DNA from: Methanopyrus kandleri AV19
Lineage (GTDB): Archaea > JAADCQ01 > Methanopyri > Methanopyrales > Methanopyraceae
DNA length: 32,000 bases
Direction: 5' to 3'
Assembly: GCF_000007185.1 (NCBI RefSeq)
Contig: NC_003551.1
Location: forward strand, 150,001 to 182,000
The position numbers were made by a program, and so were the translations under genes. This document shows, piece by piece, positions 3,413 to 30,135 of this stretch. The notes beneath the pieces were generated by a model. The model had not been told where the DNA came from. It worked only from the letters and a program-made list of their open reading frames with translations, and did no database searches. The first letter of the stretch is position 1; the number at the start of each line of letters is the position of its first letter.

Positions 3413-4548
3413 CCGCTGTCCCCCGCCACCTCTGTGAGGACGGCTTCGAACTCCTCCGGACTCGCGTCGGTTTTCACAACGGCTCTCTTTGAATAGTGTG
3501 GACGCACCGCGTTGAATCCCTCCTCACGGAGCCCCTCAAGTACCGAGGTCAGACTCGGCACCCTGGATAAGCCCAACCTCGACGCCCATCGGTGGATATC
3601 GTAAGCCCAAGGATTCGTCCCGGTCTCCTTCGCCACAGTCTCCAGGAGTTCCGCAGCCTCTTCGAGCCCGAGTTCGCGGGCGTCCGAAGCCGCACGTTCG
3701 GCCCGCTCCCGGTCCGCGAAGTCGGGCAACCACAGGGGTCCCAACCTTACTACGCTCCCTGACCCGCAGCGCGGGCACTCACGATCGAACTCGCGCTCCG
3801 AAGTGTACCCACACTCGCGACAGTGCAGAAGGTAACCGAGCCGTTTTAACGCCCGATCGGCTCGGCGGGCTCCTCTTCGGATCTCGCCGATTACGCGCAC
3901 ATGATGACGCTGGAAGAACGCGATATGTGGTTCGAACGCGAGGTCGTACTTCGCACACGTTCGGACGATGTACGAAATCAGCGCGCGGATGGCCACTTCC
4001 TGGTAGAACTCGACGCGCTCAACCTCGACCCAATACTTCCTCCGGGCCGAGCGCGGGTAACGCCCTGCGAGGGCCGAGACGTCGGTGGCGGAGATCCCGA
4101 CCACGCCACGGTTCCGGACCGTTCTAACGGCGGCATCCAAGAACGGGACCGGAGGCCCGAACGGATCGATGTCGACGTAATCGAAACGACCTGCCAGCTC
4201 ATCTTCGTGCATCAAGGCGTTCGCATCACGGTTCTCGATCCTGCAGACGTCCTCGACGTCGTTCAACCGGACGTTCTCCTCGATCAGCTCGACCGCGCGG
4301 GGATTGAGATCGTTGAGGACGACCACCTCAGGACTCAACTCGACGGCGATGCGGATCCCGCGAGCGCCTACTCCCGCCAGCGGATCACACACGATCTTCG
4401 GGCCGTATTGCACCAGCGAGGATACCGTTAAATCGCGGCTCAGTTGCATTGCGGGGTTGTAGAACACTGGGTCTCTGGCGGAGGGCTGCCCGCGGGTCTT
4501 CGGGACTTTCAGCGGCGTGCGGCCCTCGGTGATTATCTCAAGCTCCAT
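3397..4548 (-). CDS. trm1: tRNA (guanine26-N2)-dimethyltransferase Trm1
   Basis: Motifs VFYNPAMQLSRD, DPLAGVGARGIR, DIDPFGPPVPF and ATD, plus a Cys cluster CRECG...CPRCG. The 3' end overlaps the HPS-like gene start by 16 nt. Confidence 0.9.
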   Translation of the reverse strand: MELEIITEGRTPLKVPKTRGQPSARDPVFYNPAMQLSRDLTVSSLVQYGPKIVCDPLAGVGARGIRIAVELSPEVVVLNDLNPRAVELIEENVRLNDVEDVCRIENRDANALMHEDELAGRFDYVDIDPFGPPVPFLDAAVRTVRNRGVVGISATDVSALAGRYPRSARRKYWVEVERVEFYQEVAIRALISYIVRTCAKYDLAFEPHIAFFQRHHVRVIGEIRRGARRADRALKRLGYLLHCRECGYTSEREFDRECPRCGSGSVVRLGPLWLPDFADRERAERAASDARELGLEEAAELLETVAKETGTNPWAYDIHRWASRLGLSRVPSLTSVLEGLREEGFNAVRPHYSKRAVVKTDASPEEFEAVLTEVAGDSGCLHR

Positions 4549-4855: not shown

Positions 4856-4882
4856 GACTATTTACCCCCTGGGGGAGACCAG

Positions 4883-9701: not shown

Positions 9702-10819
9702 ATTCCTCCTTTGACACTCGATGCTATTAACACCTTAGGTTGAACCGCGTCTTTCGGTATTTCAACGATTACTAGTAAGTTCTCCCAGCTCCGGATACCT
9801 TCCCTAGCCTCAATGCTCATTAACTGACGAATGAAGCCGCCTCCCCGGCGTGCCCTTTCTACGGCCATCGCTTTCACCAGATCGCGGAGATCTACGAGCG
9901 CCACCGGCGACAGGTGAGGTGACGTGACTCTGGTGTTCAGGCCCGGGTAATTTTTAAGCGTATACGTGACACCCGTCCCGCCTCCGACGGCGTACGATCT
10001 CCCGGTTACGAGGCCTGCCGGGAATACCACCTTCCTTAGGGCCAAATCCGAGCTACCTGTACGGTACATGGTCTCCAACGCAGATGCTGATACTAGGTCA
10101 ATTTTGAAGTTATCTGGTAACCCGCCTTTAATCAGCATAATATATCGAACTATAGCCCCGCTTATTTGGTTGGGGCCCTTATATGCTTCCTTATTTTTAA
10201 CTTTAGCAATTTTCTTAAGAGCCCAGTTCGTAATCGATAGTGTCACCCTATCCCCGACTTTTATAGGACCCGTCTTATTCGGATCTGCCCAAATTGCTAT
10301 CAGTACTGTTTCAGGGCGCTTCACTTGAACTTTCATCAGTTCGTCAACACCCATCATCCTTATCTTGTTCAATGCGTCTCTGACAGTAAGCAACTGTGGT
10401 CCCTCAGGCGTAACTAATTCTACCCTCCCTTTCTTCTGATTCATTTTGATTTGCTTCGCCAGATACCTCCTCCACTCTACCGTTGCAGCGCCCACTACAT
10501 CAATTGCTTGTAACTGTTCTGGAGTCTCTGCTGAGAGTATTTGCTGCTGCAATTTAGTCCGCGTTGGTGAAGCTGCGAGCGGTCCTGTGAAATATGTGTT
10601 TAGCTCTTTCAACTTTTGAGCACGAAGTTTTTCCAACTGCTCTACATACGGTTTGTATACGAAAAAGTAGTACGCCCCACCGCCGGCGGCCAAGAAAATC
10701 AATCCTATGACGATCGCTCCGATCACGGCGTGGCGTCTCTCTTCCGGAATCTCAACGAAGTTCGTCGGTCTCACCGGCGGCCGCGGAAGCACCCTCTCAC
10801 CCCCCTCACCATGTACCAC
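9680..10819 (-). CDS. N-terminally anchored membrane protein, uncharacterised (AT-rich gene)
   Basis: 379-aa ORF with a single TM (AVIGAIVIGLIFLAAGGGAYYFFVY) followed by a coiled region. The C-terminal LLVIVEIPKDAVQPKVLIASSVKGGIWIL faintly recalls CpaB/SAF-type pilus-assembly proteins (weak). It overlaps both neighbours. Confidence 0.55.
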   Translation of the reverse strand: MVHGEGGERVLPRPPVRPTNFVEIPEERRHAVIGAIVIGLIFLAAGGGAYYFFVYKPYVEQLEKLRAQKLKELNTYFTGPLAASPTRTKLQQQILSAETPEQLQAIDVVGAATVEWRRYLAKQIKMNQKKGRVELVTPEGPQLLTVRDALNKIRMMGVDELMKVQVKRPETVLIAIWADPNKTGPIKVGDRVTLSITNWALKKIAKVKNKEAYKGPNQISGAIVRYIMLIKGGLPDNFKIDLVSASALETMYRTGSSDLALRKVVFPAGLVTGRSYAVGGGTGVTYTLKNYPGLNTRVTSPHLSPVALVDLRDLVKAMAVERARRGGGFIRQLMSIEAREGIRSWENLLVIVEIPKDAVQPKVLIASSVKGGIWILPET

Positions 10820-12707: not shown

Positions 12708-12730
12708 GGTATCCCCCCAGGGGTGGTGGT

Positions 12731-15842: not shown

Positions 15843-16553
15843 TTGCGCCTTCGGGCAGACCTGCATACCCACACGGTATACTCAGACGGCCACGGGACCC
15901 CGCTGGAGAACGTATTAGCGGCGGAAGAGCGGGGACTCGAGACGGTCGCATTAACCGATCACGGTCCCGCATCACCCGACGGTCTCACGGATCGGTCCTT
16001 CAGACGTCTCGTGGCGGAAGCCAGGGAGGCGGAGAAACTCTGCTCGGTTCGGGTGTATGTTGGTGTGGAAGCGAACATCGTGTCAATCTCGGGAGAGATA
16101 GACGCAACACCGGCGATGCTCAGCGAGTCCGACATCGTGCTGGCCGCCATCCACAACCCTCGTCTGATACTGGCGAACCCGGGAAGTGCGGAAGAACTAC
16201 GACGCGCGATCGTACACGCGACGATCAGGTGCATAGAGAGTGGAGAGGTACACATAATCGCGCACCCGGTGTGGATCCTGGAGCAGCTCCGATGTTACAT
16301 AACCGCACAGGAGGCGGAAGAAATCGCCCGGGTGGCCGCCGATCACAACGTCGGGCTGGAGCTTAACGCGCGGCATCTCCCCAGGGACTTCACCTTATAC
16401 CAAGTCGCGATTCGGGTAGGGGCACCGATCACGTTCGGTAGCGACGCCCACGCACCTGAGGAAGTGGGGCGGTTCAAGCCGCTCCAGAAGCTAGCCCGAA
16501 GGCTCGGTATCGAACCGCAGGATGTACACCCGGAGGAGCTGGGGATCGTCTGA
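15843..16553 (+). CDS. PHP-domain metal-dependent phosphoesterase
   Basis: RADLHTHTVYSDGHGT and ALTDHGP, with later His/Asp motifs (AIHNP, IIAHP, GSDAH). TTG start. Confidence 0.8.
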   Translation: MRLRADLHTHTVYSDGHGTPLENVLAAEERGLETVALTDHGPASPDGLTDRSFRRLVAEAREAEKLCSVRVYVGVEANIVSISGEIDATPAMLSESDIVLAAIHNPRLILANPGSAEELRRAIVHATIRCIESGEVHIIAHPVWILEQLRCYITAQEAEEIARVAADHNVGLELNARHLPRDFTLYQVAIRVGAPITFGSDAHAPEEVGRFKPLQKLARRLGIEPQDVHPEELGIV

Positions 16554-16744
16554 CCCTGAGGACCTTAAACGTCGACTGGGAGGCGGTCAAAGACGCGCTG
16601 AGCGATACCGAGGAACCGGAAGAGCTTGCTGAGCTACTGAATCCCCCCGAACTCGCCGCCGCCTTACCGTACTCCGGATGCGATAACCCGCGGGAATTCC
16701 TCAAGAGGCTCGAGGTTCGCTCCGACCCCATCTCTTTAGCGTTA

Positions 16745-17686
16745 GTGGAGATACACGGCAGGGTCGCGAGGAAGGTGCAGGAGTGGAAACCGTTCGTGTG
16801 CCCTGATATCCGCGCGGCCCGCGAGTTCACGCGAGAGATCGTGGCCAAGGCTAAAGCCGACTTCTTAGCGGAGCGAGCCGGAGGATCCGAAGCGCTGGAC
16901 CTGTGCGCGGGACCCGGCGGAGACACGTTGGCCTTAGCGGAGCACTACGACGTGAAAGCCGTGGACCGTGAGGTACCTCGGATCGAGGCGCTGAAGATCA
17001 ACGCTCGGCTCCACGCGGGGCACGCCGTTGAAGTTATCGAGCTAGACGTCATGGAAGCCGAGCTTGATGCGGACGTCGTCCACGCGGATCCGGGCAGATC
17101 CGGCGCCAAGGACCCGAAGCGTACCGAGCCCCCCGCGACGGAACTACGAGACATGTTCTCAGAAGTCCCACACATGATCGAAGTGCCACCAGCCGTGAAA
17201 CCGAGACCGGGAACCGTAGTCTTCAGTGCGACGGGTGAGGTCCGTTCAGTCTGCTGGACCAACCTGACCGAAAAAGTCGCAGCCGTGATCGCGGAGACAT
17301 CAGCTGTTCTCGAAGGCCTTCCACGGAAGCCCACGGAAGCGTTGGAACCCGAAGAGGTGCGCTACGTTATCGAGCAGGATCCCGCCGTCCGTAAAGCGAA
17401 CCTTTCGTGGAAGCTCGCCGAGGAGCTCAACGTTCATCCGACAGTCGTCGCCGGTGAGGAGACAGTGTTGGCGTCGGAAGATCCACCGGACTTAACAGTC
17501 GATCACGTGATCAGGGTAGTGGAAGTCGGAGAAGAGGGCGACGGTCCGCCTACGATACGGTCTCTCGGTGTCAAACTGAACCCAAGACGGTTAGCAGAGT
17601 TGCGCAAAACGTACAAGGAGTACGACATCGTGTACGTAACGAAGGCCGGTGTCCTGGCCGGAAAAGTGATCTACGAAAGGGAGTGA
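16745..17686 (+). CDS. Class I SAM-dependent methyltransferase (nucleic-acid MTase-like); the true start is probably upstream
   Basis: SAM motif LDLCAGPGGDTLALA and VVHADPGR. Coordinates use the first canonical start (GTG 16745). The frame is open from 16460 and encodes protein-like sequence (see findings). Confidence 0.7.
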   Translation: MEIHGRVARKVQEWKPFVCPDIRAAREFTREIVAKAKADFLAERAGGSEALDLCAGPGGDTLALAEHYDVKAVDREVPRIEALKINARLHAGHAVEVIELDVMEAELDADVVHADPGRSGAKDPKRTEPPATELRDMFSEVPHMIEVPPAVKPRPGTVVFSATGEVRSVCWTNLTEKVAAVIAETSAVLEGLPRKPTEALEPEEVRYVIEQDPAVRKANLSWKLAEELNVHPTVVAGEETVLASEDPPDLTVDHVIRVVEVGEEGDGPPTIRSLGVKLNPRRLAELRKTYKEYDIVYVTKAGVLAGKVIYERE

Positions 17687-20933: not shown

Positions 20934-21410
20934 ATGGTTCGGAGAACCTCTGAAGAGATTTCAGAACGCATGGAAGACTACCTGGAAGCCCTATACCTAC
21001 TTTCGAGACGCGGCTCCGGCCGACATGTGAGGATATCGGAACTCAGCGAGTACCTGGAAGTGTCCAAACCGACGGCGTTGGAGATGATCAGAAAGTTAGC
21101 AGATCGCGGCTTAGTAGAGTACGAACGAGGTCTGGTGAAACTCACGGAGAAAGGTCGAGAGATCGGTAAGGAGGTGTGGGACAGGCACCGGGAGATAGCG
21201 TCATTCCTCCGGTTCTTGGGTGTAGATCCGAAGATAGCGGAACGTGACGCATGCGCTATAGAGCACTCGTTACACCCGCAGTCTTTCCGGAGACTACGAA
21301 AACTGTTCCACCTCCTGAAGGAGGCGACCGGGGAACCGACCGTGCGCGAGATCCTAGATAAAGTGCGGGGGGAAGAGGGAGATTCAGACGGAGTTCGACA
21401 TCGATCGTAA
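20934..21410 (+). CDS. DtxR/MntR/IdeR-family metal-dependent transcriptional repressor
   Basis: MEDYLEALYLL, wHTH ISELSEYLEVSKPTALEMIRKLADRGLVEY, and metal-site region DRHREIASFLRFLGVDP...ACAIEHSL. Confidence 0.85.
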   Translation: MVRRTSEEISERMEDYLEALYLLSRRGSGRHVRISELSEYLEVSKPTALEMIRKLADRGLVEYERGLVKLTEKGREIGKEVWDRHREIASFLRFLGVDPKIAERDACAIEHSLHPQSFRRLRKLFHLLKEATGEPTVREILDKVRGEEGDSDGVRHRS

Positions 21411-21516
21411 GACGCTGAAGGCCGGACTCAGAAAGCTCCGGTCACTGGTCAAGGTCAAGATTCGACTAGCTAGGGAGCACGGTACCGTAGAGGTAGACCG
21501 ACCTCCTCTACCCATA

Positions 21517-21996
21517 GTGAAGAGCTGGTACGGGGAGGTTCTGGAAACCGTTGACGACGCCGAGAACTTCTTCGAAAGGGAGCTCCGACGCATGCATAAG
21601 GTCGAGCTCGAGGAAGTACCCAAGGTGGTATTCTGCGCTTTCGACGTTATCGAGGGAGTCAAGCATGAGTTCGAGCCTGAAAAGTATTTATATAAGCCCG
21701 GGGCGATACCCGCGGGAGCTCAGGCGTTGACACTGGATATCATGACGGACGATCATAGGGAGGATGCCGTGTACATAGGGGAGCCGGGCCCGGAAGTGAG
21801 CCGCGACCGTTGGGCGGGCCGTGTAGTGTCCGTCCTCGCGAGGCTGTTGCCAGAGTGTGTGGAGGTTGGGTTGCTCGAAGATGTCAGGGAGCTGGAGGGC
21901 GTAAGGGTGAGGATCGGGAAGTTCACCCTACTGAACTACGTTACTGGCGCGGCACTGGCGCTCTCGGGGGCCGAGGTCGAGCTCGAAGTTCAGTGA
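21517..21996 (+). CDS. Hypothetical acidic protein
   Basis: 159-aa ORF with host-like composition. No recognisable motif. Confidence 0.45.
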   Translation: MKSWYGEVLETVDDAENFFERELRRMHKVELEEVPKVVFCAFDVIEGVKHEFEPEKYLYKPGAIPAGAQALTLDIMTDDHREDAVYIGEPGPEVSRDRWAGRVVSVLARLLPECVEVGLLEDVRELEGVRVRIGKFTLLNYVTGAALALSGAEVELEVQ

Positions 21997-22301: not shown

Positions 22302-22377
22302 AGGGCCGTGGGGTAGCGGTCTATCCTGCGGGGCTTTGGACCCCGCGACCCCGGTTCAAATCCGGGCGGCCCTACCA
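22302..22377 (+). tRNA. tRNA-Gln (anticodon UUG), CCA encoded
   Basis: Manual fold. Acceptor AGGGCCG/CGGCCCU (A1-U72, as in archaeal tRNA-Gln). Anticodon stem CGGGG/CCCCG with loop CUUUGGA. T arm CCCGG-UUCAAAU-CCGGG. Discriminator A plus CCA. Confidence 0.85.
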
Positions 22378-22420: not shown

Positions 22421-22690
22421 TTGGACGCGCTGCTGAAGATCTGCATACTGAATGCGCTGGCGGTGGTAGCTTTCGCCGTACTCGTCTGGGCGGCTTTTAG
22501 GTACGCACTTCCCTCCTGGTTCATCCTGGCGATTATCGTCCCAGGGGTTCTCGGGTCAGCGTGCGTTGACTACGTCATGATCAGCGTCGGTGTGTACGAT
22601 GGCCCGTGGGAAACGGCATTCGCGAGCGTTGTGTACGCGGTGGCATGGTGGACAGGAAGACCCGGACCGTCCGGCCCGGGGTCCCGTTAG
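22421..22690 (+). CDS. Small hydrophobic protein (about 3 TM), hypothetical
   Basis: 89 aa. TTG start with AAGGGGA 6 nt upstream and GC-rich third positions. The last ~6 codons are complementary to the vhuU SECIS hairpin. Confidence 0.45.
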   Translation: MDALLKICILNALAVVAFAVLVWAAFRYALPSWFILAIIVPGVLGSACVDYVMISVGVYDGPWETAFASVVYAVAWWTGRPGPSGPGSR

Positions 22691-22704
22691 GGTTCCCCCG
22701 GGCC
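22673..22704 (-). promoter_or_regulatory. Archaeal-type SECIS element in the vhuU 3' UTR
   Basis: The minus-strand RNA is GGCCCGGGG-GAA-CCC-UAAC-GGG-A-CCCCGGGCC. This gives a 9-bp GC lower helix, a GAA/A asymmetric internal loop, a 3-bp upper helix and a 4-nt apical loop. It starts 19 nt after the vhuU stop. Confidence 0.8.
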
Positions 22705-22722
22705 ATCATCCGGCCGGGGCGT

Positions 22723-22864: not shown

Positions 22865-24169
22865 CTAAGCTAGTTCCACGATTTCGTCCTCTAACTTTTT
22901 CGCGGTCTCCTTCAGGGCGAGCTCGATCGCGGGGACGTTGTGAGTGGTAGCGACTATCAGGTTGGCCTCCTTCACGCGACCCTCGTCGTCGGTCACGTAG
23001 TGGTGGATGAGCGTACCACGCGGCGCCTCGACGATGCCGACTCCTTCGCCCGCCTTGGGCTCGTAGTCCTCCTTGCACTCGTCCTCCTCGGTGATCACAT
23101 CGTCCTCGAGCAGCATCTTGGCCTCCTCACACGCGGCCACGAGTTCCACGAGCCGGGCCCAGTTGATGGTGAGCGAGTAGTTCACGCACTCCCCGAACTC
23201 GTCGACGTACTCCTCGTAGAGCTCCTGGGCGCGCTCGGTCTTCATCTCCGAGCAGACGTTGAGCCGTGCACCCGGTCCTACCCTGTAGATACCGTCCGGG
23301 TACCCGACGTCCTTCAGGTACGGGTGTTTGACGTAGGAGTACTCTATGGTGCGCTCCGCGATCACGTCCTGGTATTCCTGCGGCTCGAAGCGCGTGACCT
23401 CCTCCCCGTTCGGATCCACTACCTTCACCTCGCCGTCGTAGAACTCGTGCTTGTCACCGTCTGAGACGAGACCCATGTGGTAAGTCTCGATGTTCCCTAG
23501 AGTCTCGAGCAGATCGATGTCGTGCTTCTCCCGGTACTCCTCCAGCGTCTCTTTGATCGCCTCGATGCCGACCTTGGCACCCTCGTACGCCATCTCGATC
23601 ATCTCTTCGGCGCGGTTGAGCAGGTCATCGCGTGACTCCGGGTCGACCGGGGAGGAGACGCCGCCCGGGATCCCCGTCACGGGGTGTATGGCCTTACCTC
23701 CGGTAGCCTCTACGATGTCCTGACCGTAGCGACGCAGTTCGATCGCGATCTTTCCGACTTCCGGGTCGTCCTTGACTATCTTCACCACGTTACGCTGGAG
23801 CGGGTCCGCATCCGGTCCAACCACGTAGTCGGGCGCCGCCAGGAAGTAGAAGTGAAGCGCGTGGCTGTGGATCATGTTCCCGATGTGCATCAGCCACCGG
23901 ATCTTGTGCCCGCCTTCGGGCGGCTCGGCGTCGAAGCACGCGTCCACGGCCTTGCAGGCCGCTAAATGGTGGGCAGTCTGGCAGATACCGCAGATCCTGG
24001 ATACGATGTAGGGAACGTCCTCCGCGGGGCGGCCTTGGACGAACTTTTCGAACCCTCGGACTGCGAGGACTGCGAACTTGACGTCGGTCACCTCACCGTC
24101 CTCGACCTCGATGATGACTTCACCGTGTCCCTCTACCCTGGTCAGGGGGTGAATCTTGATCTCGGCCAC
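22865..24169 (-). CDS. vhuA: F420-non-reducing (Mvh/Vhu-type) [NiFe] hydrogenase large subunit, C-terminally truncated form
   Basis: LTRVEGHG and RICGICQTAHHLAA (N-terminal Ni ligands). It ends at ...ATTHNVPAIELALKE..., before the DPCxxCxxH motif. Confidence 0.9.
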   Translation of the reverse strand: MAEIKIHPLTRVEGHGEVIIEVEDGEVTDVKFAVLAVRGFEKFVQGRPAEDVPYIVSRICGICQTAHHLAACKAVDACFDAEPPEGGHKIRWLMHIGNMIHSHALHFYFLAAPDYVVGPDADPLQRNVVKIVKDDPEVGKIAIELRRYGQDIVEATGGKAIHPVTGIPGGVSSPVDPESRDDLLNRAEEMIEMAYEGAKVGIEAIKETLEEYREKHDIDLLETLGNIETYHMGLVSDGDKHEFYDGEVKVVDPNGEEVTRFEPQEYQDVIAERTIEYSYVKHPYLKDVGYPDGIYRVGPGARLNVCSEMKTERAQELYEEYVDEFGECVNYSLTINWARLVELVAACEEAKMLLEDDVITEEDECKEDYEPKAGEGVGIVEAPRGTLIHHYVTDDEGRVKEANLIVATTHNVPAIELALKETAKKLEDEIVELA

Positions 24170-24172
24170 CCG

Positions 24173-25090
24173 TTACTCCCCCTTCGAGCCGAAGATCACG
24201 TCACGATGACCCTTCAGTAGAGACGCGGCCATGGAGAACATGTAGAGCTTCCCAGGTAGGTCGACGAGTCCCTCCAGGATCTCCTCGACGTCGACGTCGG
24301 TCTCGAAGGACACCGAGGCGATCGCATCGAGGAACGCCGCACCCTGATCCAGTGCCTGCTTCGTCGGTCCGTTACACCCACGGCACGATAGTCCTCGGGA
24401 CGGACAGGCCGCTCCACATCCGGCGACCGTGGCCGGTCCCATGCACGGGTAGCCCTGTTCGAGCAGGCACTTGTCCGGGTCGGGTCGGCCCTGACCGGTG
24501 CGGAACTTGATCTCCTCGATCGGGATGTCCTCCTTCTCGCGGGGACATTCCTCGCACAGGTTCGTCGTCGGGAGTTCGGGCTCCCGGTCCTCGAGGATGG
24601 CGGTGATGACCTCAGCGATGCTCTCCGGCTTGGGAGGGCAGCCCGGCAGCATGTAGTCGACGTCGATTACCTCGGGCAGCGGCCGCACGTAGCCGAAGAG
24701 CTCCGGAACGACCTCTTCCGGAGTCTCGCCTTCGTCGTCGGTGGTCGGGGTCTCCTTGAAGACCCACTCGAGGATGTCGTCCAGTTGGTACAGGTTGGCC
24801 AGCCCGTGGACTCCACCGTAGCAGGCGCATGTCCCCACGGCGACGACGATGTCGGCGGCCTCACGGAGTTCTTCCGCGACCTCGAGATCCTCCTCGTTTC
24901 GGATGCTTCCCTCGATCACCGCTACGTTCACGTGCTCTGGGATCTCCTTCTGGTCGACTAGTACGTAGCAGTACTCGATCTCGATGGCGTCCTCCAGGAG
25001 ATCGAGTAACTTCTCGTGGAGATCGAGCAGTGACACGTGACACCCGACACAGGAGGACAGTTGAGCCGTCGCAATCGTCGCCTTACCCAT
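24173..25090 (-). CDS. vhuG: F420-non-reducing [NiFe] hydrogenase small subunit
   Basis: SSCVGCHVSLLD, GTCACYGG, LPGCPP, and a distal Cys cluster CEECP...CMGPATVAGCGAACPSRGLSCRGC. Confidence 0.9.
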   Translation of the reverse strand: MGKATIATAQLSSCVGCHVSLLDLHEKLLDLLEDAIEIEYCYVLVDQKEIPEHVNVAVIEGSIRNEEDLEVAEELREAADIVVAVGTCACYGGVHGLANLYQLDDILEWVFKETPTTDDEGETPEEVVPELFGYVRPLPEVIDVDYMLPGCPPKPESIAEVITAILEDREPELPTTNLCEECPREKEDIPIEEIKFRTGQGRPDPDKCLLEQGYPCMGPATVAGCGAACPSRGLSCRGCNGPTKQALDQGAAFLDAIASVSFETDVDVEEILEGLVDLPGKLYMFSMAASLLKGHRDVIFGSKGE

Positions 25091-25196
25091 CCCGCGCTCC
25101 CCCGGCGGTGGCCCGCGCGTGATTTAATACCGGATTGGGATTGAAGGATCGAATGCTACCCAACAGCTTCGACCGGGGGGTCCCGGAATAGCCCAT

Positions 25197-25787
25197 ATTC
25201 ACCTACCTGATGGACTGATACCGTTATGGTGGTGTGCCGTATTTTACGCTATGGCGGCCATACCGGTAGGTTTAGGGGCGCTGAGAATCCGGTCCGAGGG
25301 TCGTAAAACCATTCTGGTCGGATTGTTGGCGGGTCTCTCGTTCGTGTTCATGCAGGTGCCGATAGGCCATGCTCACGTGAACTTAACGGGACCGATCGGA
25401 ATTCTACTGGGGCCTTGGAGTTCCGCCGTGGCTGTTTTCATCGTCAACTTGGCGTGTGCCCTAATGGGACACGGAGGAATAACCATCGTCGGATTGAACA
25501 CCCTGATCAACTGGGGAGAAGCTGCCGGCGTGTGGGCACTCTACAGGCTTCTCAGGGAGAGGCTGGATTACGGTGCAGCCGCGGGGATCGCCACGTTCTC
25601 CGTCCTAGCCACATCGTCGGTGATTCCATCGTTCGTCATGGCTTGGGTTATCAACAAACCGGTACTTCCGTTCCTTCTCACACTGACCACGGTTTGGATA
25701 GTCACGGCGATCATCGAAGCCGTAATTACGGCATCGATGGTTAAGGCTCTCGCCCAAATGAAACCGGACTGGGTGAGAGATCTGTGA
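25197..25787 (+). CDS. cbiM: CbiM/NikM-type substrate-capture component of an ECF Ni/Co transporter (start codon uncertain)
   Basis: HLPDGLIPLWWCAVFYA..., later HAHVNLTGPIGILLGPW and GHGGITIVGLN. The ORF track starts at ATG 25251 and so omits the conserved metal-binding N-terminus. I place the start at ATT 25197 (alternative ATA 25188). Confidence 0.75.
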   Translation: MHLPDGLIPLWWCAVFYAMAAIPVGLGALRIRSEGRKTILVGLLAGLSFVFMQVPIGHAHVNLTGPIGILLGPWSSAVAVFIVNLACALMGHGGITIVGLNTLINWGEAAGVWALYRLLRERLDYGAAAGIATFSVLATSSVIPSFVMAWVINKPVLPFLLTLTTVWIVTAIIEAVITASMVKALAQMKPDWVRDL

Positions 25788-26476
25788 GGTTCACCGAAGC
25801 ACTGGAGTGGTCGCTGACGGCTGAGACCGTGCTCCACCGTATACACCCATGGTCGAAGTTAGTCGGGCTGATGACCACGATCTTCGCCTCGATGTTACTG
25901 TACGATCCCGAGAGCATCGCCATCCTGTCGATACCGTACCTAATCGGGTGCATCTTAGCCCGCGTTCCCGTCCGGATCCTAGCGCGGTTGTCGATACCGC
26001 CGATGGCGTTCTTGGGCGCGGTCCTGCTCCTGATGTTGCCCTCGGGCGTCCCGGGCCGCGAGGTGTTGCTGTACGCCGTTCGGGGCGCGACCGATCTCTT
26101 AGCCGTGCTCGTGACGACGCTGACGACGCCCTTCAACGCGCTGTGGTCGGCCCTCGTCGTGGTGTTCCCACCCACGCTGGCGGAGACCGGTCTCATCTTC
26201 CATCGCTCGGTGTACCGGGCGTTCGAAGAGTTGGAGGGAACGTTGAACGCGATCCGGATCCGGGGATGGAGGCTCAGGTCGATCAACGTTCTGGGATCCG
26301 TTATCGCGACTCTCTTGATTCGAAGCCACCGGAGCGCGGAACTCGTGCAGGTAAGCGTGGAGGTACGCGGGGCGACGGGTAGGGTGCGACCGTTGAAAAG
26401 ATTCGAGTTCACGCGGATAGACTTCGGATGGTTGACCATGGTGTTTTGCTCCGTGGCGTTATCGGGGGTGGTCTGA
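25784..26476 (+). CDS. cbiQ: CbiQ/EcfT transmembrane component of the ECF transporter
   Basis: Multi-TM protein with HPWSKL..., and AIRIRGWR in the conserved coupling-helix region. 4-nt overlap with cbiM. Confidence 0.8.
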   Translation: MRFTEALEWSLTAETVLHRIHPWSKLVGLMTTIFASMLLYDPESIAILSIPYLIGCILARVPVRILARLSIPPMAFLGAVLLLMLPSGVPGREVLLYAVRGATDLLAVLVTTLTTPFNALWSALVVVFPPTLAETGLIFHRSVYRAFEELEGTLNAIRIRGWRLRSINVLGSVIATLLIRSHRSAELVQVSVEVRGATGRVRPLKRFEFTRIDFGWLTMVFCSVALSGVV

Positions 26477-26477
26477 A

Positions 26478-27311
26478 ATCGGGTATGCCGTTAAGATCAA
26501 ATGCTTGACTCACGAGTATCCCGACGGCACTTGTGCTGTGTGCGGGTTGAGTCTACGAGTGAAAGAAGGTGAGTCCGTGGTTGTACTCGGACCGAACGGT
26601 TCTGGGAAGACCACTTTACTGCACCACATTCTCGGTCTGTTGACCCCCACCAAGGGACACATCCGGGTCCTAGGTCACGACTTGCCGGACGGAGTACGGG
26701 AAGTTCGGAAGCGTATAGGCGTGGTCTTCCAGGACGTCGACGACCAGCTCATCATGCCGACCGTATTGGAGGATGTGGCCTTCGGGCTAGTAAACCGCGG
26801 CATGCCGCGAGAAGAGGCGTTCGAGCGAGCCCGTGAGATCCTGGAACGGTTAGGCATTGAAGATCTGGAGGATCGGCCGCCGCAGTTCCTCAGCGGCGGA
26901 CAGAAGAGGTTGGTAGCCTTGGCGGGGGCCGTAGCTCCGGAGCCCGACCTCCTGATTCTCGACGAGCCCACCTCAGGACTCGACTTCCGCGCCACCAGAC
27001 TGTTCGTGCGACTCATCAGGGAGCTCAAGGAAGAGCTGGGGTTCACGATGATACTGACGACGTTCGACGTGGACATCGCGGCGGCGTTGGCGGAGCGCGT
27101 CGTGGTGATCCGAGAGGGGAAGACCGTGGCCGAAGGGTCTCCGGAAGACATCCTCACGGACGTCGACCTGATAAGAGAATCCGGGCTGAAACCCCCGGAG
27201 CACGTGGAACTACTCCGAAGGCTAGGAATCGAGAATCCACCGCTCGACATAAGCGAGGCGGAGGAGCTTCTGGTGGCCATGCTGGGGGAGGAGAGCCGTG
27301 GAAACCCGTAA
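26478..27311 (+). CDS. cbiO: CbiO/EcfA ATPase component (start codon uncertain)
   Basis: Walker A GPNGSGKTT, Q-loop, signature LSGGQKR, Walker B LLILDEPTSGLD. The ORF track starts at TTG 26505, which removes the first beta-strand (AVKIKCLTHEYPDG). I start at ATC 26478. Confidence 0.85.
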   Translation: MGYAVKIKCLTHEYPDGTCAVCGLSLRVKEGESVVVLGPNGSGKTTLLHHILGLLTPTKGHIRVLGHDLPDGVREVRKRIGVVFQDVDDQLIMPTVLEDVAFGLVNRGMPREEAFERAREILERLGIEDLEDRPPQFLSGGQKRLVALAGAVAPEPDLLILDEPTSGLDFRATRLFVRLIRELKEELGFTMILTTFDVDIAAALAERVVVIREGKTVAEGSPEDILTDVDLIRESGLKPPEHVELLRRLGIENPPLDISEAEELLVAMLGEESRGNP

Positions 27312-28821: not shown

Positions 28822-29454
28822 ATGAGCGGTGTAATGGGTATCGATGAAGCCGGACGTGGACCCGTGTTCGGCCCTATGGTCGTGGCCGGTGTACTGGCTC
28901 CGAAGCGGGAGCTCGGCCTAGGCGCGAGAGATTCGAAGGAACTCACACGGAGTGCGCGTCGTAGACTGATCCGCGCGTTGATGTCGGACGAGCGATTAAG
29001 GGTGGACCTGAGGATAGTGTGGCCGTGGGAGATAGACGAAGAGGGCGTGGCGAAGGCGGAGTTCGAAGCTATCAGGGAGCTAGTACGCCGTGCTATGCCC
29101 GACGAGGTAATCCTGGACAAACCGGGAAACTACTCACCCGAGCGACTGCGAAGGGAGCTCGACTTGCCCGAAGGAATCAACCTAATCGCTGAAGAGAGGG
29201 CGGACGCGAAGTACGAAGTAGTTTCAGCGGCCTCGATCGTAGCCAAGACGTACCGTGACTGGATAGTAAGGCTCCTGGAGCTGGAATACGGAGAGGTCGG
29301 GTCGGGGTACCCTTCGGACCCCCGTACCGTAGATCGCCTTCGTCGGGAACTACGTCGGGGTGGTGAGTTGCTGAAGTACTTCAGACGGTCGTGGGAGACG
29401 TACAAGCGCGTTGAGAGTGAAGTGAAGCAGCGAAAGCTCGAGGACTTCTTCTGA
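28822..29454 (+). CDS. rnhB: Ribonuclease HII
   Basis: MSGVMGIDEAGRGPVFGPMVVAGV, DSKELT, AASIVAKTYRD, GSGYPSDP. The ORF-track N-terminal extension (from 28576) overlaps the opposite-strand gene and is rejected. Confidence 0.9.
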   Translation: MSGVMGIDEAGRGPVFGPMVVAGVLAPKRELGLGARDSKELTRSARRRLIRALMSDERLRVDLRIVWPWEIDEEGVAKAEFEAIRELVRRAMPDEVILDKPGNYSPERLRRELDLPEGINLIAEERADAKYEVVSAASIVAKTYRDWIVRLLELEYGEVGSGYPSDPRTVDRLRRELRRGGELLKYFRRSWETYKRVESEVKQRKLEDFF

Positions 29455-29475
29455 GCGCGCGGAGGGGGGTTAAGA

Positions 29476-30135
29476 CTGCGAATAGCAGGCCTGAGACCCG
29501 TGAGCTGCTCCGATGGCTTACCCGGTGAAGTGTGTGCGGTCCTTTGGACTCAAGGATGTCCGCTACGATGTCCATGGTGCCACAACCCGGAGACCCGCGA
29601 TCCGAACGGGGGAAAGAAGGCCGATGTCGAGACCATCTTACGGGACGTGGAGAAGTACGCCGTTTACCTGGACGCACTGATAGTGAGCGGAGGAGAACCA
29701 CTCCTGCAGCCGTGCGAGGAGCTGAAAGCGCTGGCACGTGGTGCTCGGGGCTTGGGTCTCAAGGTCGTCTTGGATACCTCCGGGTTCCCCCCGGATCGCC
29801 TCGGGAAGGTCATCTCGAGCTTCGACAGGGTAGCGCTGGACCTGAAAGCGCCTCTACGCGATGACGAGTACATGGAAGCGACTGGCGGCGGCATGACGGC
29901 TTCGGACTTCCTGAAAGCGGCCCGGATAGCACGCCGGCGATGTGACCTGGAACTGCGGATCACGGTGCATCCGTGGCTTGACGACGTGCCGAGGGTCGTG
30001 GAGGCAGTCCGGAAGGCGTCCCCCGACGTGGTGGTCGTTCAGCGATACGTCGGGGACAAGGAGGTCGGGATCGACCCCGAAGAACTCGCCGAGAAGCTCC
30101 GAGAGAGTTGTGAGAATGTCGTGGTACGGGTGTGA
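29476..30135 (+). CDS. Radical SAM enzyme of the PflA/NrdG-activase type; candidate RaSEA (archaeosine formation) by context
   Basis: The CPLRCPWCHN CX3CX2C cluster follows DGLPGEVCAVLWTQGC, and VSGGEPLL is present. Canonical GTG 29500 is possible, but an SD (GGAGGGGGGT) sits 5 nt before CTG 29476, which gives MRIAGLRPVS. Confidence 0.75.
   Translation: MRIAGLRPVSCSDGLPGEVCAVLWTQGCPLRCPWCHNPETRDPNGGKKADVETILRDVEKYAVYLDALIVSGGEPLLQPCEELKALARGARGLGLKVVLDTSGFPPDRLGKVISSFDRVALDLKAPLRDDEYMEATGGGMTASDFLKAARIARRRCDLELRITVHPWLDDVPRVVEAVRKASPDVVVVQRYVGDKEVGIDPEELAEKLRESCENVVVRV

Follow-up and report, generated by a model that had tools for sequence, protein, structure and literature searches.

The 32,000-nucleotide (nt) stretch of the Methanopyrus kandleri AV19 genome analysed here (the window; NC_003551.1, positions 150,001 to 182,000 of the forward strand) contains a cbiM/nikM-like gene whose reading frame has no canonical start codon at its proper N-terminus. 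Counted from ATA 25188, the start codon that we propose, the gene occupies positions 25188–25787 of the forward strand and comprises 199 codons. Its product is the substrate-capture (S) subunit of an energy-coupling factor (ECF)-type nickel/cobalt importer. The protein scores 114.2 bits with the Pfam CbiM family PF01891 (cut-off 23.1) and covers positions 1–205 of the 205 positions of the profile, the first of which corresponds to the His codon at 25200. Its nearest protein matches come from Methanopyrus. Downstream, in the operon order cbiM-cbiQ-cbiO, lie cbiQ for the ECF T component (25784–26476, forward strand; TIGR02454, 115.8 bits, above the cut-off) and cbiO for the ECF ATPase (proposed coding sequence 26478–27311, forward strand; matches to ABC_tran and ECF ATPase models). 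The GTG start of cbiQ and the stop codon of cbiM share the tetranucleotide GTGA at 25784–25787.

The cbiM operon and a [NiFe]-hydrogenase operon point away from each other across a 97-bp intergenic region. The divergent small-subunit gene (24173–25090, reverse strand) is followed by the large-subunit gene (22865–24169, likewise divergent from cbiM), and the subunit pair matches PF01058 and PF00374. Synteny with the hydrogenase and the gene order cbiM-cbiQ-cbiO are kept in all orthologous loci. The conserved hydrogenase neighbour suggests nickel as the substrate of the transporter.

The cbiM frame is closed upstream by a TAA at 25125–25127. None of the 41 codons that follow is ATG, GTG or TTG; the earliest canonical start is ATG 25251–25253, which encodes the internal Met22. 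The startless stretch translates as YRIGIEGSNATQQLRPGGPGIAHIHLPDGLIPLWWCAVFYA-M, that is, as ...LRPGGPGIAHIHLPDGLIPLWWCAVFYA-M. The residue before H-L-P-D-G is the Ile encoded by ATT 25197, with A-H further upstream, and the codons at 25191–25214 (forward strand) specify A-H-I-H-L-P-D-G, the predicted mature N-terminal metal-binding loop. A preliminary description of this DNA, made from its letters and open reading frames (ORFs), had already noted that no canonical start lies between the stop at 25125–25127 and ATG 25251, that the stretch encodes the metal-site N-terminus of the CbiM/NikM family, and that a protein beginning at 25251 would lack it. The reading of the frame bears out the first point, and the matches to PF01891 and to NCBIfam models, together with the alignment to the nickel-binding protein TtNikM2 (PDB entry 4M58), bear out the others.

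The startless stretch upstream of ATG 25251 is real coding sequence under purifying selection. Across the 21 codons preceding this ATG, the proportion of synonymous differences (pS) between Methanopyrus genomes is 0.57–0.75, compared with 0.02–0.06 for nonsynonymous differences (pN). The ratio of nonsynonymous to synonymous substitution rates (dN/dS) of the whole gene is 0.08–0.15 within Methanopyrus. Conserved coding sequence thus extends upstream of every in-frame ATG, GTG or TTG.

Ten syntenic loci with eight different start regions were compared, five of them from Methanopyrus and three to four from metagenome-assembled genomes (MAGs) of a sister clade. AV19 (the window), KOL6/L012, L005, L009, L010 and L011 make up the five different Methanopyrus start-region sequences. 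The sister-clade loci (L001 = L002, L003 = L007, L006, and L004 = L008) have about 58% protein identity and 68% GC. The proteins P0075 and P0076 were used in place of their cluster mates P0002 and P0003. Further scans of genome and metagenome contigs for orthologues added only L006.

The loci share a common layout, in which a TATA box is followed by an ATG at 23 nt, a run of six G residues (G6), a variable spacer of 7 nt, and the coding pattern ATA-(GCC/GCA/GCG/TCC)-CA[TC]-(ATT/ATC/GTG/GTC)-CAC-(CTA/ATA/CTG)-CCN-GAY-GGN. The archaeal TATA-like box ATTTAATA (25122–25129, forward strand) is the only AT-rich element of the 97-bp intergenic region, encloses the in-frame TAA, and is conserved in 10/10 loci; it is a putative promoter element, and its orientation towards cbiM is likewise predicted. 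The box is quasi-palindromic (GATTTAATAC) and just 32 nt away from the ATG of the hydrogenase (25090), and it might serve both the hydrogenase and the cbiM directions. The conserved ATG 25153 opens an out-of-frame upstream ORF (uORF) of 12 codons (MLPNSFDRGVPE; 25153–25191, forward strand), whose TAG stop codon overlaps ATA 25188 as ATAG. Its distance to the TATA 8-mer is 23 nt in all ten loci, while the distance to G6 is 22, 21 or 20 nt; as a result of this indel upstream of G6, each of the three frames relative to cbiM is taken by the ATG in one locus or another. Judged from its position, ATG 25153 may mark the 5′ end of the mRNA and the start of transcription, or it may open a leaderless uORF. 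A riboswitch or another structured leader was rejected: no Rfam family matched within 25050–25300 up to E = 10, and the leader folds no better than shuffled sequences (z = +0.52).

The G-rich, Shine-Dalgarno (SD)-like heptamer GGGGGGT occupies positions 25175–25181 of the forward strand, with G6 at 25175–25180 and the T at 25181. G6 is invariant in 10/10 loci, and the codon ATA (25188–25190, forward strand) follows it after exactly 7 nt in 9/10. The preliminary description had placed the GGGGGGT heptamer 7 nt before ATA; that distance is correct for the G6 run, and the heptamer itself ends 6 nt before the codon. The exception among the loci is L004/L008, in which ATA is replaced by TTA and cbiQ is frameshifted. 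This locus (3565–4270, 2974–2976) also has ATA instead of ATC at the start of cbiO, and its oddities could reflect operon decay or an assembly error. ATG occurs at neither candidate position, ATA or ATT, in any of the ten loci. The plain ATG that the preliminary description proposed to look for in orthologues as the sign of a sequence error was therefore not found, and five Methanopyrus genomes reproduce the sequence. Four other Methanopyrus start regions (five loci) likewise lack a canonical start, so the missing start is not a sequencing error.

The pattern of substitutions changes at ATA. From ATA to ATT, the codons for Ala/Ser and His have undergone only synonymous or conservative changes, with Ser present in L011. 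The in-frame “residues” of the spacer before ATA vary non-conservatively (PG, AG, QA, PE, RA and VG). Because the spacer varies in this manner and the conserved upstream ATG falls in three frames, the coding constraint starts at ATA. Synonymous sites are close to saturation between the window and the sister clade (pS 0.71–0.89), where ATA makes up about 1–8% of Ile codons by a crude count. The Ile, Leu and Val codons 4, 6 and 11 shift to G/C endings in the sister clade, and codon 1 stays ATA. A near-cognate start codon at a normal distance from the ribosome-binding site has thus been kept in 9/10 loci, drawn from two related clades, despite near-saturated synonymous divergence.

G-rich heptamers are rare: the two strands of the window together have about 28 distinct sites, and many of these are located just 5′ of the starts of long ORFs. 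The assignment of an SD function is based on the recurrence of motif and spacing at other genes, as the 16S rRNA gene is outside the window. The hydrogenase small and large subunits are preceded by GGGGGAG-N6-ATG and GGGGGAG-N6-GTG, respectively, and a gene of the creatininase family by GGGGGAG-N7-GTG. Similar elements are GGGGGGT-N6-GTG at a 370-codon ORF at 10805 (reverse strand), GGGGGAG-N5-TTG at an ORF at 4871, and GGGGGGA-N4-ATG at an ORF at 12718 (reverse strand). The cbiM arrangement GGGGGGT-N6-ATA fits the motif and spacing of these neighbouring genes.

An alignment of 29 subfamily sequences shows H3, H5, P7, D8, G9 and H63 to be invariant (numbering from ATA). We further compared 54 homologues from outside the clade, which belong to bacteria and other archaea and are 30–45% identical. 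The motif H-x-H-x-P-D-G is present in 49/54, and none has the classical N-terminus M-H-x-P-[DE]-G. In 38 homologues, a start codon and one T, S or A precede the first His, exactly at the position of ATA-GCC in the window, so that ATA aligns with Met1 of the M-[T/S/A]-H-x-H-x-PDG proteins; in another 10 the start codon directly precedes the first His. Methionine aminopeptidase removes Met before small residues and leaves it in place before His. By this rule, both classes of homologues yield the same mature N-terminus, X1-H2-x3-H4-x5-P6-D7-G8. Four proteins annotated as beginning with MHIPDG probably use the second ATG of M-T-H-M-H-I-P-D-G, as confirmed at the DNA level for P0041.

The AlphaFold (AF2) model of CbiM has a mean predicted local distance difference test (pLDDT) value of 92.6. 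It displays the S-component fold of seven transmembrane (TM) helices, with an additional N-terminal helix and loop. The best Foldseek matches of the model are CbiM 5X3X (5X3X_M) and TtNikM2 4M58, with template-modelling scores of 0.79–0.85, and the six-TM vitamin S components score lower (0.50–0.63). A phmmer search of the PDB with the single cbiM protein returned no match, and a subfamily profile was needed to reach 4M58. The protein reaches none of the NCBIfam CbiM cut-offs, with a best score of 52.6 bits against 200. In the profile alignment, Met1-His2 of TtNikM2 correspond to positions 4–5 of the subfamily. Its nickel ligand His67, a second-shell ligand in the classical transporters, corresponds there to His63 (25374–25376, forward strand), which is invariant in the subfamily alignment.

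TtNikM2 (4M58), Rhodobacter capsulatus CbiM (5X3X) and CbiM of M. kandleri are all PF01891 proteins whose operons also encode CbiQ and CbiO. The predicted fold of M. kandleri CbiM agrees with theirs, and it has kept the His-x-Pro-Asp/Glu-Gly loop as well as the equivalent of His67. In contrast to these classical proteins, its subfamily has two to three extra N-terminal positions and a second invariant His. The locus also differs from the classical CbiMNQO and NikMNQO systems, since no CbiN, NikN, NikL or NikK gene was found beside cbiM and no ORF between cbiM and cbiQ, in a search that covered the locus and did not extend through whole genomes to unlinked N genes. The overlap of the cbiM stop with the cbiQ start leaves no room for an N gene between them. 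The M-Q-O order is found in the loci of Methanopyrales and in the distant relative L013. As judged from its sequence features, CbiM belongs to a CbiN-less subfamily with the N-terminus (M)-[T/S/A]-H-x-H-x-P-D-G. Outside Methanopyrales, most members of the subfamily carry a His/Glu/Asp-rich insertion of the type HEHDHSHEHDHEHD between the last helices; it is entirely absent from the Methanopyrales proteins (alignment columns ~190–250).

The nickel ligands of TtNikM2 are the Met1 amine, the amide and imidazole of His2, and His67 (PMC3945884). One added N-terminal residue abolishes transport by classical CbiM (Yu et al. 2014, PMC3945884, citing Siche 2010). Given this intolerance of extension, the two extra N-terminal residues, and the lack of a linked CbiN/NikN gene, the metal site of the subfamily is probably built differently.

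We infer, with a probability of roughly 65%, that translation of cbiM starts at ATA 25188 under the guidance of the SD-like element. ATA is preferred over ATT because G6-N7-ATA is kept in 9/10 loci, the intervening Ala/Ser and His codons evolve as coding sequence, and the first His is invariant. In the mechanism that we propose, GGGGGGT at 25175–25181 would position the small ribosomal subunit 6–7 nt upstream of ATA, and initiator Met-tRNA would pair with AUA through a third-base mismatch. The primary product would be M-A-H-I-H-L-P-D-G..., from which methionine aminopeptidase would remove Met before Ala, exposing A1-H2-I3-H4-L5-P6-D7-G8. By analogy with TtNikM2, the free amine would bind the metal together with His2, His63 and perhaps His4 as well. 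The combination of a weak start codon with a strong ribosome-binding site would probably keep the output of the membrane transporter low, which is the likely selective reason for the arrangement.

Several points weigh against initiation at ATA. The N-terminus of the protein and the 5′ end of its mRNA are both deduced from sequence. The near-cognate codons AUA, AUC, AUU and CUG initiate at 0.02–3% of the level of AUG in Escherichia coli (bioRxiv 10.1101/063800), and archaeal aIF1 has been reported to discriminate against non-AUG codons (PMC6237735). The orthologues come from two related clades only, so that the conservation counts are not independent, and the TTA codon of L004 is not a near-cognate of AUG. 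The remaining points favor the codon three positions downstream: the 4M58 alignment and 8 of the 12 listed NCBIfam CbiM models put Met1 on ATT rather than ATA, three of the four sister-clade sequences (L001/2, L003 and L006) have GTG at the aligned position, and the classical model, in which the amine of the residue just ahead of His-x-Pro is a metal ligand, would by analogy make ATT 25197 the “right” N-terminus.

Initiation at ATT (25197–25199, forward strand) would give the 196-residue protein of the public databases, in which the Met1 amine and His2 of M1-H2-L3-P4-D5-G6 would bind the metal, in keeping with a classical mechanism that is intolerant of N-terminal extension. ATT is also the proven start codon of E. 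coli infC and pcnB. A start there would however delete a His that is invariant in 29/29 subfamily members, many of which have a plain ATG upstream of it, and would leave the coding-type substitutions in the Ala/Ser and His codons outside the gene. The position itself changes between ATT, ATC, GTG and GTC as an ordinary Ile/Val codon does, and it is 15 nt away from the SD-like heptamer, compared with 4–8 nt at the other G-motif-led starts in the window. The preliminary description, which correctly aligned ATT with Met1 of classical CbiM/NikM, gave it as its headline choice; we regard a start there as unlikely. The alternative that it offered, initiation at ATA 25188 followed by Met removal to give A-H-I-H, fits better with the 9/10 loci and with the 38/54 homologues that have Met and a small residue.

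ATA could also be reached by termination and reinitiation, in which ribosomes would translate the 12-codon uORF from a leaderless AUG 25153, stop at TAG 25189–25191, and restart on the overlapping ATAG. The uORF begins 23 nt after the TATA 8-mer in 10/10 loci, the place expected for an archaeal transcription start site, the ATAG overlap is found in 4/5 distinct Methanopyrus sequences, and 4/6 substitutions in the uORF frame are synonymous. Neither the frame nor the end of the uORF is conserved, however. In L001/2/6 the uORF shares the frame of cbiM, in L003 it extends 98 nt into that gene, in L004 it shrinks to 4 codons, and in L011 it loses its stop. As the layout of SD element, N7 and ATA accounts for all loci without a uORF, we give reinitiation a rather low probability. 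A related candidate, an upstream ATG in frame with cbiM as annotated in P0004 (MMPIIEPGGQA-IAHVH), was rejected. Only L001/2/6 have this ATG in the cbiM frame. It belongs to another frame in L003, the window and the other Methanopyrus loci, and in L004 a stop ends its frame after 4 codons. Because the conserved ATG falls in three frames relative to cbiM, its being in frame in P0004 is fortuitous, and the conservation of “PGG” in that protein is that of the G6 run at the DNA level.

It is very improbable that translation starts downstream and yields a protein without the N-terminal loop, either at ATG 25251 (178 residues, the choice of ab initio gene callers) or at CTG 25215 (190 residues). ATG 25251 is the first canonical start, and several public calls use it or CTG 25215. 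Such proteins would lose upstream codons that are under strong purifying selection and encode the invariant H-x-H-x-P-D-G and most of the first TM helix; moreover, Met22 is Leu or Ala in the sister clade, and the scan of the window for G-motifs found no SD-like element before 25251. That the missing start is a sequencing error, the mark of a decaying pseudogene, or a programmed frameshift on G6 from the upstream ATG has a negligible probability: homopolymer G6 runs are error-prone and L004 has both TTA and a broken cbiQ, but five independent Methanopyrus assemblies and four MAG contigs repeat the layout, always with G6, and the ORF is intact and has the low dN/dS given above. From the upstream ATG, moreover, different loci would need a shift of −1, 0 or +1, and in L004 a stop intervenes.

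The annotation of cbiM in public databases is unstable. The gene of the window itself is called as proteins of 178 residues from ATG 25251, 190 residues from CTG 25215, 196 residues from ATT 25197 (MHLPDG..., P0068) and 217 residues from ATT 25134; a start at ATT is thus already in the databases. In other strains, the DNA codon behind the annotated Met is ATC (L010), ATA at the H-I-P position (KOL6/L005) or CTG (L009). Like our proposal, P0068 and RefSeq entries such as WP_456484389.1, WP_457620577.1 and WP_257789229.1 accept a non-canonical start. They differ from it in using four different start codons in near-identical genes, none of which is the conserved ATA 25188, and the first invariant His is lost in all of them.

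The start region of cbiO (26464–26480, forward strand) is composed of GGGGGTG, a 7-nt spacer and ATC 26478. It is conserved in all 10 loci, with ATA in place of ATC in L004. The N-terminal sequence I-G-Y-A-V-K-I is kept, with synonymous codon changes between loci. The other Methanopyrus genomes have a stop 2 codons before ATC and their first canonical start 9–27 codons after it. In the window the first canonical start is TTG 26505, and a protein begun there would lack positions 1–6 of TIGR04520, a model of ECF ATPases. These sequence features make ATC 26478 the probable second non-canonical start of the operon.

Including cbiM and cbiO, five genes of the 32-kb window have homology-supported N-termini upstream of the first ATG, GTG or TTG. 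Literature searches on start-codon usage, mapped N-termini and near-cognate starts in Methanopyrus returned nothing relevant. A gene resembling SAM-dependent methyltransferases (start region 16550–16745) has its first canonical start at GTG 16745, preceded by about 63 protein-like codons. Its sister-clade orthologues begin with M-R-T-L-D-L-D-W where the window has CTG 16556, CTG 16550 overlaps the TGA of the upstream gene as CTGA, and public calls range from 313 to 388 residues among Methanopyrus strains. The ORF 21382 family (start region 21358–21517) consists of conserved hypothetical proteins without a Pfam or NCBIfam match, whose homologues of 197–206 residues begin within 5–12 residues of ATT 21382. 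GGGGGGA precedes this ATT by 7–8 nt, and 45 codons separate it from GTG 21517, the first canonical start. The candidate starts are ATA 21358, ATT 21382, ACG 21388 and ATC 21400. The fifth gene (start region 29452–29500) encodes an NrdG2-like radical-SAM activase, whose orthologues begin with M-E-L-R-L-A-G in the sister clade and M-R-L-R-I-A-G in SNP6. At this position the window has TTA-AGA-CTG-CGA-ATA-GCA-GGC directly after GGAGGGGGG. The one near-cognate codon in this stretch is CTG 29476; a protein begun at GTG 29500, the first canonical start, would be shorter by about 8 residues.

The surroundings also contain tRNA-Gln(TTG) at 22302–22377 and, at a distance of about 4 kb upstream from the transporter, a gene for a regulator of the DtxR/iron-dependent-repressor family (20934–21410). 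The Rfam flpD RNA motif RF01737 (55.8 bits; 22667–22713, reverse strand) is located just 3′ of the hydrogenase large-subunit gene and presumably stands before an mvhD/flpD-like gene.

As we read it, the cbiM start adds a new and well-conserved case to a known phenomenon, non-canonical initiation. It resembles the confirmed AUU starts of E. coli infC and pcnB in that a near-cognate AUH codon is placed at a conserved position behind a ribosome-binding site, presumably lowering or tuning expression. It differs from them in its archaeal host, which has aIF1 and aIF2 instead of IF3, in the use of AUA where the E. coli genes have AUU, in having no known autoregulatory logic, in a second cistron, cbiO with its ATC, that seems to be alike, and in being a prediction from the genome sequence. 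To our knowledge, a start other than AUG, GUG or UUG that is conserved throughout an archaeal class is rare.

Where the N-terminus lies determines how proteins of this transporter family bind their metal, and the metal site of the CbiN-less X-H-x-H-x-P-D-G subfamily is probably not identical to the solved NikM2 and CbiM sites. Nearly identical genomes are annotated with at least five different N-termini, all of them probably wrong. Two such starts in one operon, with hints of more nearby, make start-codon fidelity in a methanogen living at 100 °C directly testable. We tentatively suggest, as a possibility that we still consider doubtful, that Methanopyrus and its sister lineage routinely initiate at AUA, AUC, AUU and CUG behind strong G-rich SD elements. 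If so, this hyperthermophile lineage would have a relaxed start-codon stringency, and the N-termini of its annotated proteomes would be systematically wrong.

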